Shown here one piece after another: positions 2,845 through 54,180 of a stretch of DNA of 64,000 nt. The notes beneath the pieces were generated by a model. It was not told the DNA's origin and did no database searches. It saw nothing but the letters and a program-made list of their open reading frames with translations. The position numbers and the translations under genes are program-made. Position 1 is the first letter of the stretch; each line of letters begins with the position of its first letter. Source of the DNA: Flavobacteriales bacterium UBA5081 (GTDB lineage Bacteria; Bacteroidota; Bacteroidia; Flavobacteriales_E; Vicingaceae); assembly GCA_002415785.1 (NCBI GenBank), contig DIAJ01000032.1, positions 61,142 through 125,141 of the forward strand, given 5' to 3'.

Positions 2845-3358
2845 AATATTTTTTATAAATCTGTTCACTAATTCTATTCGAATCAATATTTCCTTTAGTT
2901 ATTATTTCATTAAAGAAAATATGTAAAAATGGATGAGAACTCCCATCAGGAATTAACTTTATCGTATCTTTTTTATGATAATCCTCTGCCGTTTTCTCTA
3001 CCTGTTTTTTTACATCTTTATCATCAGCAGACTCTAAAGCAATTTTTTTATCATCTGAATACCATTCACTAATGATGTCAGCCACGTTTCCTATAAAGTC
3101 AGGTAATAACTCAAAAGGAGAGTGGTCAAAACTTGGTAAACTTAAATTCCTCCAACGACTAGTGTAATATGTTAAATCTGAGACGACGCTAACATCAAAA
3201 TGTCCATTCGGAATTATATTGGGGTCTGTAACCCAAGGCTCTGCTATTGGTGTATGATTTCTTGTATCAGGACTTGTAAGAATAAAATAATCTTGAGGAA
3301 AAGGCCTTCTCGGTCTATCCGCCGAAATAACTAATCTCATTAGAAATTTATGAATCAA
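2810..3358 (-). CDS. Stand-alone toxin C-terminal domain, paralogous to the toxin part of 3908..4927 but lacking any Rhs core or delivery region (possibly a displaced remnant)
   Basis: VISADRPRRPF...P.GH...LPS...DKDVKKQVEKTAEDYHKK aligns with VISAERPRVPF...DKDVEKQAEKAAEDYNEK of orphan 1. Homology starts abruptly at about 3336, right after the stop (3348) of the upstream immunity gene. An alternative ATG lies at 3340. Confidence 0.6.
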   Translation of the reverse strand: MIHKFLMRLVISADRPRRPFPQDYFILTSPDTRNHTPIAEPWVTDPNIIPNGHFDVSVVSDLTYYTSRWRNLSLPSFDHSPFELLPDFIGNVADIISEWYSDDKKIALESADDKDVKKQVEKTAEDYHKKDTIKLIPDGSSHPFLHIFFNEIITKGNIDSNRISEQIYKKYYENDTNVVKDY

Positions 3359-7313: not shown

Positions 7314-7532
7314 TTAATTAATTTCAACCTCTCTGTCTGTAAATTGCATTTCTTCTACAATCTTCTGAACCATAGTTCCATCTTCAAGTTCTACATACGC
7401 TCTTAAATATTCTGATCCATCATCATTTTTCAAGGTTATATACATGTGGAACCATCCTCTTACGTATTCTTGATTTTGATATCCCGGAGGATATTTTCTA
7501 AACTTCACTGGTCTTAAATCTTCTTTTTTCAT
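7314..7532 (-). CDS. Small hypothetical protein (72 aa)
   Basis: An intact ORF with non-repetitive, charged and balanced composition, flanked by long hairpins. No recognisable motif. Confidence 0.45.
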   Translation of the reverse strand: MKKEDLRPVKFRKYPPGYQNQEYVRGWFHMYITLKNDDGSEYLRAYVELEDGTMVQKIVEEMQFTDREVEIN

Positions 7533-7759
7533 TTTATTTATTTTTTTAATTCATATATCTATTATACCGTTTAGAGCTTAGAAGTTTTAAAAGATCACTC
7601 TTTTTTAATGAATAAAATTTGGTTGGGGGGTGTCAGTGTGTTTTGTTCATTAAAAAAGAGTAATCCAAACGCTTTCCGGGCTTTATGCGGAGCAAAAGAG
7701 TAGGCAAAGTGCGGAAGGTTAGCAGTCAATTTGATGCGAAGTTAAAACCATAATGATAA

Positions 7760-8395
7760 TTAGAATGGATTAAGTTTATCACTGCTATTATTTTTAATAT
7801 TTACTTTCTCAATTAAAGGTTGTAAAACGGAGTCAATCTTCTTTTTCAAGATTGGAACGTATTCCACAATATCATTTTGATGTAATTCTAAGACATCTTC
7901 AATAGCAGAAACATAATTTTTTAATTCATTTTTCAAAGATTCAATTACTTTATCATTGCCACTAATACCACCTAACCAATTAGTCAATTTAACAACCATT
8001 GTATTATCTTTTATCTCAACCTCAAGAGGTTTGAATCCATAAGTCTTGGAAGGCACACACTTAAAAAAATCCTTATTCCCTTTAAAAGGGATGGTATAAT
8101 TTGCAACTTCAATATTATATCTACGTCCCATGACAAATTCTGTACCTGCAGGTAATTGTTGACCTGACATTTCTTCAATGATTATAGAGGACTTCGTTTG
8201 CTCTTTTAATAAACTTGGAACTTCTAAATCAAGGTCATCTACTAAGTTTTCAATTTCTCTTTCTTTATCAAGGTTTGCTAAAACGCTATCGCTGTATCCT
8301 GTAATTTTATTTTTTACTTCATCCTCTTTTTCAGTTAGATAGTGAGGTAATTGTATCTCTCTAAATAGATTAACGTATTTCTTTCGTCCGAACAT
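7760..8395 (-). CDS. Hypothetical protein (211 aa)
   Basis: An intact ORF with protein-like composition and no recognisable motif. It lies downstream of a ~570-nt GC-enriched noncoding stretch. Confidence 0.55.
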   Translation of the reverse strand: MFGRKKYVNLFREIQLPHYLTEKEDEVKNKITGYSDSVLANLDKEREIENLVDDLDLEVPSLLKEQTKSSIIIEEMSGQQLPAGTEFVMGRRYNIEVANYTIPFKGNKDFFKCVPSKTYGFKPLEVEIKDNTMVVKLTNWLGGISGNDKVIESLKNELKNYVSAIEDVLELHQNDIVEYVPILKKKIDSVLQPLIEKVNIKNNSSDKLNPF

Positions 8396-49637: not shown

Positions 49638-50056
49638 TTATTTTTCTTTAATAGTTATAAGTGTAAAGATTCATAGCTCCGTTCTTGTCTGTCAGCTACG
49701 TAGTTTATTTCTTGCAATATTATAGAATTTTGACACTTACTCGCATTGGTTTTGTTGAGCTTTCGTTTTATTTATTATGAAAATGGACTACTTTTCATGA
49801 ATTATGGTTATTAATTAATTACTATCGTGAATTTCAATTACAACTATATAAGTAAAACATGAATGAAGCACAACGTTTACTGATCGACTAGACAAAGGGG
49901 GCTTCACCCCAACTGTAGATTAATCTTTTCCAAAGTTTTATAGAGCAAAAAATAAAGTGCTACCAATAATAGCTAAACTTACTCACTAATTGACCACTAC
50001 TTTCAACTTTGGAAAAGTTGCGTCAAGCTTAAATAGTCTTTTCTAAAGTTAAATAA

Positions 50057-50187
50057 AAATCATCGAAAAACCCATCGTGAAATTCTGAACCATCCTCCGA
50101 TTGTGAATGAAGCTATAGTCAACAGCGCATTCATCTTGGGTTGCCGATTTTTATCGGAACCGACCACAGGAATGCTTAGTTATTGGC
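50057..50187 (-). repeat. Copy 1 of a ~130-bp gene-3'-adjacent repeat (family also at 52545..52673, degenerate trace at about 51790..51845)
   Basis: By eye it is about 75 percent identical to 52545..52673. Shared blocks are aaatcatc.a.aaaccca, cctccgat, gaagctatagtcaaca.cgcat, ttatcggaaccgaccaca.gaatg.ttagttatt. It abuts the kinase stop codon (50193). Confidence 0.7.
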
Positions 50188-50192
50188 ATTAG

Positions 50193-51230
50193 TTATTTTC
50201 TTTTTCCGATTACATAATCTTGAAGAATCCTTTTTGATTTCTTATCAGCTTCTGACTTTGATATTTTCTTTTCGCAGTCAACGGTAATTCTTCTAAGGCT
50301 TGATTTATCTTTTCCCTGAGATAGTTCAATGTCCCAAGACCCATCATCTCTTTCGGTTTTCAGTAGTTGAATTAATTTTCCCCCTTGAGACGACCGCCAC
50401 CTGAAACCATTTGGTTGTCTGTTCTCCACCCAATTATGATTTAACTCTACCTTCTCCAATGCGTGTCTCATTTCTTCTGCGGAATCAAATCTTTCTGTCG
50501 GTTCTACGTTTAGAGCCTTATTAATTATTTTCTTCAATGAAACTGGTATAAAGTCTCTGTAGGACTTTCTATCAGGAAACTTAGCTTCCAACGCTTTGCT
50601 CCGCATTTCGGAAATTGTAAGTGCAAGCAAAAAACTATCTCCGTTAACGAGTCGATATAAGGTCATGCCACAGGAATAAATGTCTGAGAGATAATCATAG
50701 TCAGACAGTGTTGTGACTTCGGGTGCTAAATGCATCCAATATTGATACTTCTTTAAAACCGATACATCTACCTTTTTTATGTCTGGCAGTGCCAAGCCAA
50801 AATCTGATAATTTACCTTCACCTGAATTCCCAATCATAATATTCGCTGGCTTTATATCTCTGTGAAGTATTTTTTTTGAATGAGCGTGTTCAAGTCCCCT
50901 TAGTAGGTCTATCATTAGCTTCTTAGCTCTTGTCAGAGGAATATATGCTCCGCTTGCTTCATCTTCTAAGCTGCCATTTGAGAGAAATTCCATTTTCACA
51001 TAAATTCTACCATCGTCCATTTCTCCCGTTTCGTATACTTCGACAATGTTATCGTGCTCCGCTGCTTTTAAGGTTTGAGCTTCTTGATAAAAATTGTTTG
51101 GGTTGATTACTTTTTCTGGTGGAATCAGTTTGAGGGCAAAGGTTGAGTTCAAACCTGTATCCTTCACTTTCCATACTTCACCAAAGTAACCGGAACCTAG
51201 TCTTTTTATGAATTCAAATGTTGCTGCCAT
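50193..51230 (-). CDS. Hanks-type Ser/Thr protein kinase with a ~80-aa C-terminal extension
   Basis: The motifs are GSGYFGEVWKV (G-loop), ALKLI (VAIK Lys), HRDIKPANIM (catalytic loop), SDFGLA (DFG) and LAPE (APE). Confidence 0.9.
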   Translation of the reverse strand: MAATFEFIKRLGSGYFGEVWKVKDTGLNSTFALKLIPPEKVINPNNFYQEAQTLKAAEHDNIVEVYETGEMDDGRIYVKMEFLSNGSLEDEASGAYIPLTRAKKLMIDLLRGLEHAHSKKILHRDIKPANIMIGNSGEGKLSDFGLALPDIKKVDVSVLKKYQYWMHLAPEVTTLSDYDYLSDIYSCGMTLYRLVNGDSFLLALTISEMRSKALEAKFPDRKSYRDFIPVSLKKIINKALNVEPTERFDSAEEMRHALEKVELNHNWVENRQPNGFRWRSSQGGKLIQLLKTERDDGSWDIELSQGKDKSSLRRITVDCEKKISKSEADKKSKRILQDYVIGKRK

Positions 51231-51231
51231 A

Positions 51232-51693
51232 TTAATTCAACATACTTACTGCAGCTTGAATAGATTCTTGAGTATTCTTGTTTGCTGAGTCATATCCTGA
51301 AATTCCTGAAAAGTCAGCTTTGGTTTCAAGATATTTACCTTTCCCTTTCATGCCAAGGTCTTTTGCAATTGTACTTTTCACCTTTCTTTTTACGTATTTA
51401 ATACCGCAAAGAGAAGCTTGCAGGAAAATTATTCCTTCTTTTTCCATTCTAGCTCCGTAGCTTTTTCCTTTCATTCCCATAGGCTCTACGCCCTTTATTC
51501 CTATTCCATGAACCTGGTGTTTTTTAATGATTCCTTCAATCTCTTGGGATAACCATTTCAGAGTGTCAGATTCAGAATAGCCTTTAGGAAAAGTAATTGT
51601 ACCTGAGTCTACCAAGGTGACAGAATCTTGTTTTCCCTTTACAACGGAAAAGGAAAAATCCTTTGAACTGCATCTTATTCCTAATATGCTCAT
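51232..51693 (-). CDS. Small protein (153 aa) with a possible RNase H-like/RuvC-like fold lacking the first catalytic Asp; operon partner of the kinase
   Basis: The N-terminus MSILGIRCSSKDFSFSVV resembles the RuvC-type beta-strand (ILGIDPG) but has R in place of D. The overall pattern reminds me of DUF3010-type proteins, which is a weak, memory-based link. Its stop is 1 nt from the kinase start. Confidence 0.4.
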   Translation of the reverse strand: MSILGIRCSSKDFSFSVVKGKQDSVTLVDSGTITFPKGYSESDTLKWLSQEIEGIIKKHQVHGIGIKGVEPMGMKGKSYGARMEKEGIIFLQASLCGIKYVKRKVKSTIAKDLGMKGKGKYLETKADFSGISGYDSANKNTQESIQAAVSMLN

Positions 51694-51845
51694 GTGTTCG
51701 CCTTTTTAATTAATGCCAACGGTTTGAATAAAGCTAGTGCGGCTTTCCGAAATTTTGAAAGTACCGAAAATTTCTTTTTTCAGACGACATGTTCGACCGA
51801 AGACGTAATGGCCGCATTAGCTTTATTTTTTGTTGGCCACAGTTT

Positions 51846-52334
51846 TTATTTTTCAATTTTATGTTTCTTTCTAATTGTCACGAGTTCGAAGTCATTAATC
51901 AACGGTTTCCATTTTTGAATTAATACGCTGTCCCTGTAAAGGTATGTTGAGTCCTTTTGTCCGTCAAAAATGAAGTAGTCGTTGGGTCGAATAAGGTTCT
52001 CACTCTCAGTTGTTCCGTCATGCTCGTAAATAACATGTTCAATTACTTCTGCTCGGTCGTCTTTTATAACTACATAGTAATCATCAGTTCCTTCTCTTAT
52101 GTCATATTGCTCTGTGGTCGAATTAGTCAGGTCAATATATAGCATACAAGTATGAACTTCATATTCATTTACAACATTTGTTATCCGTCCTTCGAACGAC
52201 TCATTAAACGTCCCAAAATAGTCTTGATTCAATGTCTCAAGTTTTTTTTGGTCATATATTGAATAACCAATAGCTAGAGTCATGAAAACCACTCCGCTAA
52301 CTACTGCAAATCCTATTTTTCGTTTTGAGTCCAA
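51846..52334 (-). CDS. Membrane-anchored hypothetical protein (162 aa)
   Basis: It has an N-terminal TM (IGFAVVSGVVFMTLAIGYSIY) followed by a soluble domain. No recognisable motif. Confidence 0.55.
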   Translation of the reverse strand: MDSKRKIGFAVVSGVVFMTLAIGYSIYDQKKLETLNQDYFGTFNESFEGRITNVVNEYEVHTCMLYIDLTNSTTEQYDIREGTDDYYVVIKDDRAEVIEHVIYEHDGTTESENLIRPNDYFIFDGQKDSTYLYRDSVLIQKWKPLINDFELVTIRKKHKIEK

Positions 52335-52544
52335 TCGTTTTTTGAAATTGTGGCCAACAATTGGCTAAAACACACTCTTGTGCTTTATTCACCTTCTGTC
52401 TGTTTAAAATTAATTCTTTATTACGCTGAAATTCAGCAGATAATTTTCAAATTCAAACATACCAAAAATTTAAACAGCATCAACGAAAACTATAAAATTA
52501 AATGGTTACAAGCATTTATTAATTACTTACAAACGAAAATTTTA

Positions 52545-52673
52545 AATCATCAACAAACCCATACAGCTCTTCTGAATCTTCCTCCGATGGTTATCGAAGC
52601 TATAGTCAACATCGCATACATATTGATTATTAAATCCTTATCGGAACCGACCACACGAATGATTAGTTATTAG
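52545..52673 (-). repeat. Copy 2 of the ~130-bp gene-3'-adjacent repeat
   Basis: See 50057..50187. Here the repeat end (ttagttatt) supplies the stop codon and the last two Asn codons of the L,D-transpeptidase gene. Confidence 0.7.
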
Positions 52674-53410: not shown

Positions 53411-54180
53411 ATCGAGTAGGCAAGGGGAATTTCACCCCAAGCCTCTCACAGAACCGTACGTGACAGTCTCCCGTCATACGGCTCTTCTAGTTTTCACTTA
53501 CAAATATAGCTCATCCTCTTTAGAGTTGGCTAATGTATTTAAAAACTAGCTATTCCCTTCGCTCCACTTCCATTACAGAAGTTTCATCACTACTACGAAA
53601 TAGTCTGCCTCCTGCATCTCCCTTTGGTATTCTGCCTCTAAGTTGTGCTTATTGTACATTTCCCTTAACATGGTGATACAGGTTTCCCAAGTTCCGTAAA
53701 TAAGCCCGAATAAAGTTCTTGCCATCTGAATGACGCCAGCCCTACAGCAAGTAAATAGGTCTCCGCTGTAATTAAAGTTATTACTAACTCTACTTTTTCA
53801 CTCCGTGTCATACTTCGTAGCTTTTGACTGGGGGTTCGCACTTCTCGACACCTCATCAATGGTTCACTCTCGTTCAACTCCTTTATTCATACCAGCTAAC
53901 CTCATGGGTTAGATTCTCCTAAACGCTCAGTACCGCAACGTTGCCCTCACAGCACCTTTAGGTGGTTTAGAGCCCTTGCCTATACAACGACTCTGATGGA
54001 CCTACCATCATCTTATTTACAGCATGCAGCCATTTTATTGCCGTGGCTGCTTCTTGGCACACTATGGCTTGTGGCGGTTTCGAAGCACGTTCCTGTCCAC
54101 CAAAACCAAAGCTGGCTACGAAGGAAAAACCTTGATGGCAGCCGTTCACCCGCCATAAGCTATATGTGTTGTTGTACACC
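53411..54180 (-). mobile_element. ORF-less group II intron (or intron-derived ribozyme remnant), ~770 nt, inserted in an intergenic position
   Basis: It has a canonical domain V (next feature) followed by a domain VI-like hairpin (ttggggtgaaattcccc). About 690 nt of GC-enriched, hairpin-rich sequence lie upstream. No RT-like ORF is present. The 5' border is uncertain: GTGTAC at 54179-54174 rather than GUGYG, and an internal GTGCG at 53841-53837. Confidence 0.7.
53451..53484 (-). ncRNA. Group II intron domain V (34 nt)
   Basis: The minus strand reads GAGCCGTATGACGGGAGACTGTCACGTACGGTTC. This matches the conserved DV helix arms GAGCCGUAUG....CACGUACGGUUC (AGC triad, 2-nt bulge position, GNRA-like GAGA loop), as in the yeast ai5-gamma DV. 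Confidence 0.85.

Follow-up and report, generated by a model that had tools for sequence, protein, structure and literature searches.

A conserved RuvC-like protein encoded with a Hanks-type kinase in a Flavobacteriales genome: a candidate anti-phage cassette related to the stk locus of phage phi24B

The gene pair and its layout

The window considered here, that is, the whole stretch of DNA that was analyzed, comprises 64,000 nucleotides (nt) of Flavobacteriales bacterium UBA5081 (contig DIAJ01000032.1, positions 61,142 to 125,141). On its minus strand, a gene for a protein of 153 amino acids (aa) with the fold of the resolvase RuvC lies immediately upstream of a gene for a 345-aa Hanks-type kinase. 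The small protein, called the partner or the pseudo-RuvC below, and the kinase form a cassette that has relatives in other bacteria and in the phage phi24B. The features of the pair are as follows (positions are those of the window).

51232 to 51693, minus strand: pseudo-RuvC gene, 153 aa, an open reading frame (ORF) for a protein with a RuvC fold, an altered active site and an isoelectric point (pI) of 9.5
51673 to 51675, minus strand: codon of Arg7 (AGA), at the position of the first catalytic Asp of RuvC; aligned to the Asp of GIDPG by both HMMER and hhalign
51484 to 51495, minus strand: codons of Lys67-Gly-Val-Glu70; Lys67 ends strand β4, at the position of the catalytic Glu of RuvC, and Glu70 is invariant
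51334 to 51390, minus strand: residues 102-120 of the partner, KRKVKSTIAKDLGMKGKGK, a Lys-rich helix and loop and the most conserved segment of the protein
51265 to 51267, minus strand: codon of Glu143 in the last helix of the partner; nearly invariant and aligned to a Glu of the phi24B partner
51231, minus strand: single spacer base between the partner TAA and the kinase ATG, suggestive of translational coupling
50445 to 51230, minus strand: kinase catalytic domain (residues 1-262), Pfam Pkinase E = 1.6e-44; every Hanks motif is intact, and the activation loop contains Y162-Q-Y164
50196 to 50444, minus strand: kinase C-terminal domain (residues 263-345, ~83 aa), four or five β strands and one helix, pI 9.9, fast-evolving

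The stop codon of the partner (TAA, 51232-51234) is followed, after the one base at 51231, by the ATG of the kinase (51230-51228), whose reading frame extends to a stop at 50193. A preliminary description of this DNA, made from the sequence before any database search, had noted a 1-nt gap between the two genes, and this tight arrangement is correct. In most of the other loci discussed below, the tblastn alignments of partner and kinase lie 3-9 nt apart, and the two genes are probably translationally coupled. Marine metatranscriptome contigs of 100% identity cover both genes and span their junction (50894-51700 and 51064-51285); thus, the operon appears to be transcribed in nature.

A RuvC fold with reversed active-site charges

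The AlphaFold2 (AF2) model of the partner, built with 35 homologues, has a mean predicted local distance difference test score (pLDDT) of 93.5 and a predicted template modeling (TM) score of 0.89. When this model is compared with the PDB by Foldseek, RuvC resolvases rank first (7xhj_A, RuvC of D. radiodurans, E = 3.9e-9, TM 0.79), and RuvC resolvases are again the top matches among viral models. Profile comparison by hhalign with the canonical RuvC of a genome of the same class gives a probability of 95.2% (E = 2.6e-8); the hmmsearch match to the D. radiodurans RuvC chain is weaker (E = 0.022). The partner falls below the curated cut-offs of the RuvC families: 21.7 vs 22.2 bits for Pfam PF02075, 25.3 vs 163 for NF000711, and 14.7 vs 100.65 for TIGR00228. 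Thus the RuvC/RNase H-like fold that had been proposed from the N-terminus alone (MSILGIRCSS) is supported by the structural model. The DUF3010 family (PF11215), which had been named as a possible home for the protein, has no match to the window partner even at E ≤ 1, and the match of one family member (E = 0.034) lies under the cut-off. Likewise, no PADLOC model fits the partner; PDC-M10B gives E = 0.013 and matches only 2 of the 35 members.

RuvC is defined by a set of catalytic carboxylates, an Asp on β1, a Glu at the end of β4, and an Asp/His plus an Asp on the last helix, and this set is incomplete in the partner. Arg7 takes the place of the first catalytic Asp, as the preliminary description had stated, and the alignments bear this out; to this can be added Lys67, which stands opposite the catalytic Glu of RuvC in the HMMER alignment (hhalign places a gap there instead) and which lies at the end of the strand assigned by DSSP to residues 61-67 of the model. 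In the last helix only Glu143 is kept, probably at the position of the last catalytic Asp of RuvC. Arg7 is present in at least 90% of the 35 homologues and in nearly all of the distant relatives that were inspected. Across the partner family, no substitution is seen at Lys67, Glu70 or Asp112 and few at Arg7, Glu86 and Glu143. Distant relatives, with scores of just 1e-12 to 1e-25, also keep the pattern Arg … [Lys/Arg]-x-x-Glu … Glu-Ala. Within residues 102-120, K104, A110, D112, G114, K116 and G117 are invariant; this segment presumably corresponds to the "VKxxvxGxGxAxK" region of E. coli RuvC.

Because the substituted residues are conserved across the family and its distant relatives, and because the protein is basic, the partner is best described, from its sequence, as a maintained pseudo-RuvC whose active-site charges are reversed rather than as a decaying gene. 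Since Arg7 and Lys67 sit at metal-binding positions, the pseudo-RuvC is predicted to have lost nuclease activity and not to cut DNA. The preliminary description had suggested that such a protein would be a nucleic-acid sensor or a substrate of the kinase; the two features that would fit these roles are the pI of 9.5 and the RuvC-like basic loop.

The kinase

The catalytic domain scores 152.7 bits against Pfam PF00069, above the curated threshold of 31.7, and a Pfam scan finds no second domain in the protein. The catalytic motifs of a Hanks kinase are all present and are invariant across 28 homologues: the G-loop (G12-x-G14-x-x-G17), the VAIK-type lysine (Lys34 in FALK, codon 51129-51131) with its αC glutamate (Glu50), the catalytic loop H123-R124-D125-x-K127-x-x-N130 (HRDIKPAN, with the Asp125 codon at 50856-50858), D143-F144-G145 (50802-50804), and A169-P170-E171 (APE). 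The activation-loop tyrosines of Y162-Q-Y164 are likewise invariant, and we take this sequence to resemble the YxY autophosphorylation motif of DYRK-type kinases.

The extension of about 80 aa seen previously at the C-terminus proves to be a conserved, basic domain of ~83 aa. Modeled alone by AF2, it has a pLDDT of 86.9, and its conserved residues are W267, E269, W278, W299, C319, L336 and Q337. A Foldseek search of the PDB with this domain gives no significant match (best E = 0.16); a match to Pur-alpha (E = 0.62) is a hint of topology only. Thus, of what had been said of the kinase, the completeness of its catalytic motifs, the absence of a sensor domain (Pkinase is the sole Pfam match) and the C-terminal extension all stand.

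Linkage of the pseudo-RuvC to the kinase

Loci that contain a relative of the partner were surveyed for the kinase. There are 70 such loci, 64 on metagenome contigs and 6 on genome or assembly contigs, and the 61 that have at least 200 nt of downstream sequence were counted. In 57 of these 61, the kinase lies within a few bases downstream of the partner. The exceptions are varied. At L098 (Ga0099829_10077938), the gene after the partner is a 279-aa ORF in the opposite orientation (497-1336) that resembles an insertion sequence (IS) transposase, and the cassette appears to have been disrupted by an IS insertion. Only the distal part of the kinase is retained at L124, the kinase lies ~1.2 kb downstream of the partner at L135, and L112 has no kinase within its 454 nt of downstream sequence. 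Conversely, all three kinase homologues that were chosen independently, on long genomes (Halomonas, Cellvibrio and a 5.8-Mb genome), have the partner upstream. The partner of Halomonas alkalicola (CP130143.1, L151), at 7480-8001, is uncalled in the public annotation, and just upstream of it are encoded a P-loop protein of 1512 aa and a NERD-domain protein.

No partner-like upstream ORF is found by the partner profile, even at E ≤ 10, in any of 80 ordinary Hanks kinases. These controls are the matches (~30% identity) of a kinase scan with generic motifs (HRDIKPAN, GKLSDFGLA), a scan that is itself uninformative on co-occurrence. The partner is obligate for this kinase family. The kinase had been described as "stand-alone," a term that does not hold given the partner encoded alongside it in 57/61 loci; the co-occurrence of the two families outside this genome is established by these loci together with the three reverse cases.

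The two proteins also share their history. The distance matrices of partner and kinase are correlated (r = 0.84, Mantel 0/2000, 29 distinct pairs). The partner is the less conserved of the two in 406 of 406 pairwise comparisons, and within the kinase the C-terminal domain has a mean pairwise identity of 0.34 vs 0.63 for the catalytic domain. Within the cassette, it is thus the partner and the C-terminal domain of the kinase that change most rapidly, as would be expected of specificity modules.

Relation to Stk of phage phi24B and to PD-T4-6

Among annotated phage genes, those that match the kinase best are stk genes, with kinase domains that are 33% identical. In the record of the phi24B immunity region (EF517298.1, L161), nothing is annotated between cI and stk. 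This interval contains an unannotated 153-aa RuvC-like ORF (1484-1945), which begins MRILGVRAAP and overlaps the start of stk; a basic 54-aa ORF (2988-3152) starts 3 nt past the stk stop. Alignment of the partner family with the phi24B 153-aa ORF by hhalign gives a probability of 94.7% (E = 6.2e-8, 138 columns) and places Arg7 on Arg7, Lys67 on Arg, and both Glu positions on each other, while hmmsearch with the partner profile gives 28.9 bits (E = 9.6e-9).

A maximum-likelihood tree built from catalytic domains has a branch with support of 100/99 that separates all 20 kinases with a linked partner (the family of the window, three distant cassettes and Stk) from 41 generic kinases. As judged by these comparisons, the window cassette belongs to the same lineage as the phi24B pair of 153-aa ORF and stk.

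PADLOC also recognizes the kinase. At least 21 of its PD-T4-6 models match, the best being PDLC04042 (E = 4.9e-49), and a model of 354 positions spans residues 2-333, most of the C-terminal domain included. Thus, as the run that had been proposed earlier turns out, the kinase would be labeled PD-T4-6 and the partner matches no model.

Distribution and neighbors

The partner profile matches 544 clusters (50% identity) at E ≤ 1e-3 and 45 at E ≤ 1e-30, and nearly all of these proteins are ~150 aa in length. The named hosts include Aquiflexum (Bacteroidota), Aminobacterium (Synergistota), and Halomonas and Cellvibrio (Pseudomonadota), i.e. at least three named phyla, and the Aquiflexum kinase is 87% identical to that of the window. 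Among 401 genomes of the class to which the window belongs, the family is carried by one, the window's own; it is absent from 12 of the 12 genomes of the same family among those listed in that survey. At least three other genomes of the class (G214, G298 and G139) carry very distant versions of the cassette (L164, L165 and L166), in which the partner profile gives E = 5e-13 to 2.5e-8 and the adjoining kinase is 25-39% identical. Position 7 of the L164 partner is Asn rather than Arg (MKVIGFNFT…). The remaining weak matches within the class are probably ordinary RuvC; one that was translated in frame (L168) is a canonical RuvC.

Elsewhere, the pair occurs among SIR2_2, NERD, a cyclase of the type found in cyclic-oligonucleotide-based antiphage signaling systems (CBASS; SMODS plus AGS_C), Mrr, HsdR, and Eco57I-type methylases, as well as Fic, MazF, AbiEii and IS elements. 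At one locus it lies beside AbiTii and pP_pnuc_1, next to smpB. With just one of the 401 genomes of the class carrying it, high-identity relatives scattered over several phyla, and defense genes and IS elements as its neighbors elsewhere, the pair behaves as an accessory rather than a housekeeping gene. The best explanation for the copy in the window is a chromosomal cassette that was acquired horizontally.

In the window itself, the pair is surrounded by orphan ORFs of membrane or lipoprotein-like character and by a gene for a YkuD protein, and the four flanking proteins match no PADLOC defense model, mad genes included.

Repeats, a hairpin and intron pieces around the pair

Several noncoding features surround the two genes.

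50040 to 50184 (just 3' of the kinase stop) and 52527 to 52671, no strand assigned: copies of a dispersed 145-nt repeat, 75% identical to each other
51700 to 51849, minus strand: long imperfect hairpin of ~125 nt between the stop of an upstream 162-aa ORF and the start of the partner; -41.8 kcal/mol, z = -5.06, reached by 0 of 200 shuffles
53411 to 54009 (~600 nt), minus strand: pieces of a group II intron; domains D1-D4 (RF01999, 90.5 bits) and D5/D6 (RF00029, 67.4 bits)

The preliminary description had placed the pair in a variable islet bracketed by repeats. Copies of the repeat do flank the pair, but they belong to a family (~130-145 nt) with eight copies in this genome, including contigs C20, C24 and C38. 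All six copies whose surroundings were examined lie at or just 3' of a gene stop codon, in a constant orientation to the gene, and the two in the window also enclose the unrelated 162-aa ORF. The repeat has no significant RNA fold. Being dispersed, located at gene 3' ends and without such a fold, it was rejected as an att- or attC-like border; it represents a genome-wide family, with no att-type duplication, rather than the edge of an islet. Similar peptides (…EAIVN.A.IL…LSEPTT.M.SY) can be read on the opposite strand of the two copies in the window, and the repeat may derive from a former coding sequence or form one end of a mobile element. The flanks of the pair are not syntenic in other genera, and metagenome runs searched for an empty site or strain variation yield only low-depth fragments of the same strain. 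Consequently, the evidence for a "variable islet" is the absence of the pair from relatives.

The hairpin at 51700-51849 was considered as a part of the cassette and rejected, because three other genera have copies of it (77-87% identity) but no cassette. An alignment of five hairpin sequences retains a 16-bp stem with two compensatory pairs, no Rfam family matches, and metatranscriptome depth falls from ~22 to ~8 across it. This element may be either a mobile palindromic element or a conserved 3' untranslated region/terminator RNA.

The intron stretch contains no ORF of 100 aa or more. Other contigs of this genome carry portions of it as well, and a 41-nt match to the intron 3' end is present at 49872-49912, downstream of the kinase.

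Proposed function and alternative explanations

The suggestion of a defense role, which was made in the preliminary description on the grounds that other Ser/Thr kinases act against phages, is plausible in light of the kinship with Stk, the defense-rich neighborhoods elsewhere and the accessory distribution. In our judgment the pair is more likely than not an Stk-type anti-phage cassette, acting by abortive infection or exclusion, with the pseudo-RuvC as a regulator of the kinase or as a sensor. The pseudo-RuvC, predicted to be nuclease-dead but with the RuvC fold and a Lys-rich surface, would serve as a regulator of the kinase, a sensor of infection, or both. It would hold the kinase off until a phage-derived cue is present. 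For Stk, the cue is infection with HK97; here it might be a protein made by the phage, or DNA that is branched or of the kind formed in recombination. The kinase would then autophosphorylate, possibly on Y-Q-Y of the activation loop, and the active kinase would phosphorylate host targets broadly, so that growth stops before phage are released.

Several points weigh against this reading. Neither Pfam, PADLOC nor NCBIfam scans recognize a defense gene adjoining the pair in the window, and the partner family did not turn up when IMG/VR viral contigs, INPHARED phages and PLSDB plasmids were searched by pattern or tblastn; the phage relative of the partner surfaced only by way of the kinase and profile methods. 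The binding of DNA or of the kinase by the pseudo-RuvC is something that we infer entirely. A Mantel correlation is expected for linked genes anyway, and DNA can be present in metatranscriptome libraries and contigs. Because Stk, L164 and L166 lie on long branches (flagged by the tree tool) and the generic kinases were selected by motif, the split in the tree may be overstated. Homology of the kinase C-terminal domain to that of Stk is undetectable by hhalign (E = 0.51), and the 54-aa ORF that trails stk in phi24B has no counterpart in the window or in 30 related loci. Finally, the experimental support concerns a relative, Stk, with a kinase domain that is 33% identical.

The layout of the locus is also that of a type II-like toxin-antitoxin module, with a small upstream gene, a coupled downstream enzyme and a 1-nt gap. 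In such an addiction module, the kinase would be a growth-arresting toxin and the pseudo-RuvC its antitoxin, together stabilizing an islet or mobile DNA with no dedicated anti-phage role. The strict co-evolution of the two genes with faster divergence of the upstream one, the presence of MazF, AbiEii, Fic and IS elements as neighbors, and the patchy distribution all agree with this. However, the Pfam scan reveals no DNA-binding antitoxin domain (helix-turn-helix, ribbon-helix-helix or AbrB), the family was not found on the plasmids of PLSDB, and the homologous Stk is reported, in the accounts cited below, to be nearly or completely inactive in cells that are not infected and to respond to a phage trigger. 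We therefore regard an addiction module as unlikely, although it would not be exclusive of an abortive-infection role. A pair devoted to the cell's own recombination or repair, in which the pseudo-RuvC reports branched DNA and the kinase adjusts host physiology with no part in immunity, would account for the RuvC fold and basic surface, for the lack of known defense neighbors in the window, and for expression in natural populations with no evident infection signal. Such a role does not fit well with the absence of the pair from the 12 listed genomes of the same family and from 400/401 genomes of the class, with its scatter over phyla at high identity (87% for the Aquiflexum kinase), or with its company elsewhere of restriction, CBASS and Abi genes and IS elements, and is quite improbable.

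There is, likewise, only a slim chance that the small protein is still a nuclease and the effector of the pair, with the kinase as its regulator. Its active site would have been rebuilt from Glu70, Glu86, Asp112 and Glu143, four acidic residues that are invariant or nearly so, and the migration of active-site residues is known in the RNase H-like superfamily (PMC3985635). However, the features that are most widely conserved in distant relatives are Arg7 and Lys/Arg67, which occupy metal-ligand positions. To return to the anti-phage cassette, it can be extended to a more general, and more tentative, proposal, which we think possible but doubtful: that Stk-type defense kinases are never stand-alone and instead supply the output of a widespread immune family with two components. 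The input would come from the charge-reversed pseudo-resolvase (Arg7, Lys/Arg67), which would still recognize branched DNA from the replication or recombination of phages, or else the phage proteins responsible for such DNA, and would release or activate the kinase through its fast-evolving basic C-terminal domain.

Comparison with known systems

The RuvC resolvases (PF02075; PDB 7xhj, 4ld0, 1hjr) have the fold and size of the partner in common with it (TM 0.70-0.79). They differ in that the catalytic Asp/Glu residues are present, while the window partner is encoded with a kinase and not with ruvAB. A RuvC-like fold is also present in the C-terminal domain of the human mitochondrial protein TEFM (PDB 5ol8; Foldseek E = 3.6e-5). 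As far as we know, this domain lacks the nuclease residues, and its role is binding rather than cleavage. TEFM is eukaryotic and larger and has an unrelated partner, POLRMT; it serves here as an analogy for a pseudo-nuclease and not as a relative. DUF3010 (family D.19) consists of single-domain bacterial proteins of ~140 aa that are similar to junction resolvases (Majorek et al. 2014, PMC3985635); unlike the window partner, these are described with no mention of a kinase.

Among kinases, MAD6 of the MADS system (NF047741) can be set apart, as the window kinase scores 154 bits vs an equivalog cut-off of 460. PD-T4-6 is a Ser/Thr kinase that constitutes a single-gene defense system (Vassallo et al. 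2022, PMC9519451), and Stk2 of Staphylococcus epidermidis, as summarized in the part of that paper that cites Depardieu et al. 2016, is a Hanks-type kinase and a phage-triggered effector of abortive infection. PD-T4-6 thus differs from the window, where the kinase has a partner (as it does in 57/61 loci), in being catalogued as one gene. To our knowledge, Stk2 is a single protein with no RuvC-like partner.

The preliminary description had taken the system to be undescribed. This is not so for the kinase, whose lineage is known from Stk of 933W/phi24B and, through PADLOC, from PD-T4-6; it stands for the pseudo-RuvC, which is the part for which no description was found, and the literature consulted contains no account of a kinase paired with a RuvC-like protein. 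The kinases used in phage defense (Stk, Stk2 and PD-T4-6) have been catalogued as single-gene systems, and, as far as we know, little has been described of how they sense infection. The present comparison indicates that for a whole lineage of these kinases, with the prototype from phi24B (a 933W-like phage) among them, a RuvC-shaped protein is the constant companion. The pseudo-RuvC can thereby be put forward concretely as the sensor or regulator that has been missing from these systems. If it proves to be so, bacteria would offer a clear case in which immunity has taken over a nuclease fold as a pseudo-enzyme, and genome annotation could report both genes together where it now reports a kinase by itself.

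The closest known system is the stk locus itself. According to the passages of PMC3681748 and PMC6356687 that cite Friedman 2011 (Mol Microbiol 82:567), Stk is activated by infection with HK97 and excludes this phage; the passages on Stk found in the literature make no mention of the upstream 153-aa ORF. Like the window, the stk locus of 933W/phi24B has a 153-aa RuvC-like ORF followed by a kinase of ~345 aa (348 aa in phi24B) with a C-terminal extension, and in both the two ORFs overlap or nearly abut. Unlike the window copy, which is chromosomal, Stk is encoded in the immunity region of a prophage.

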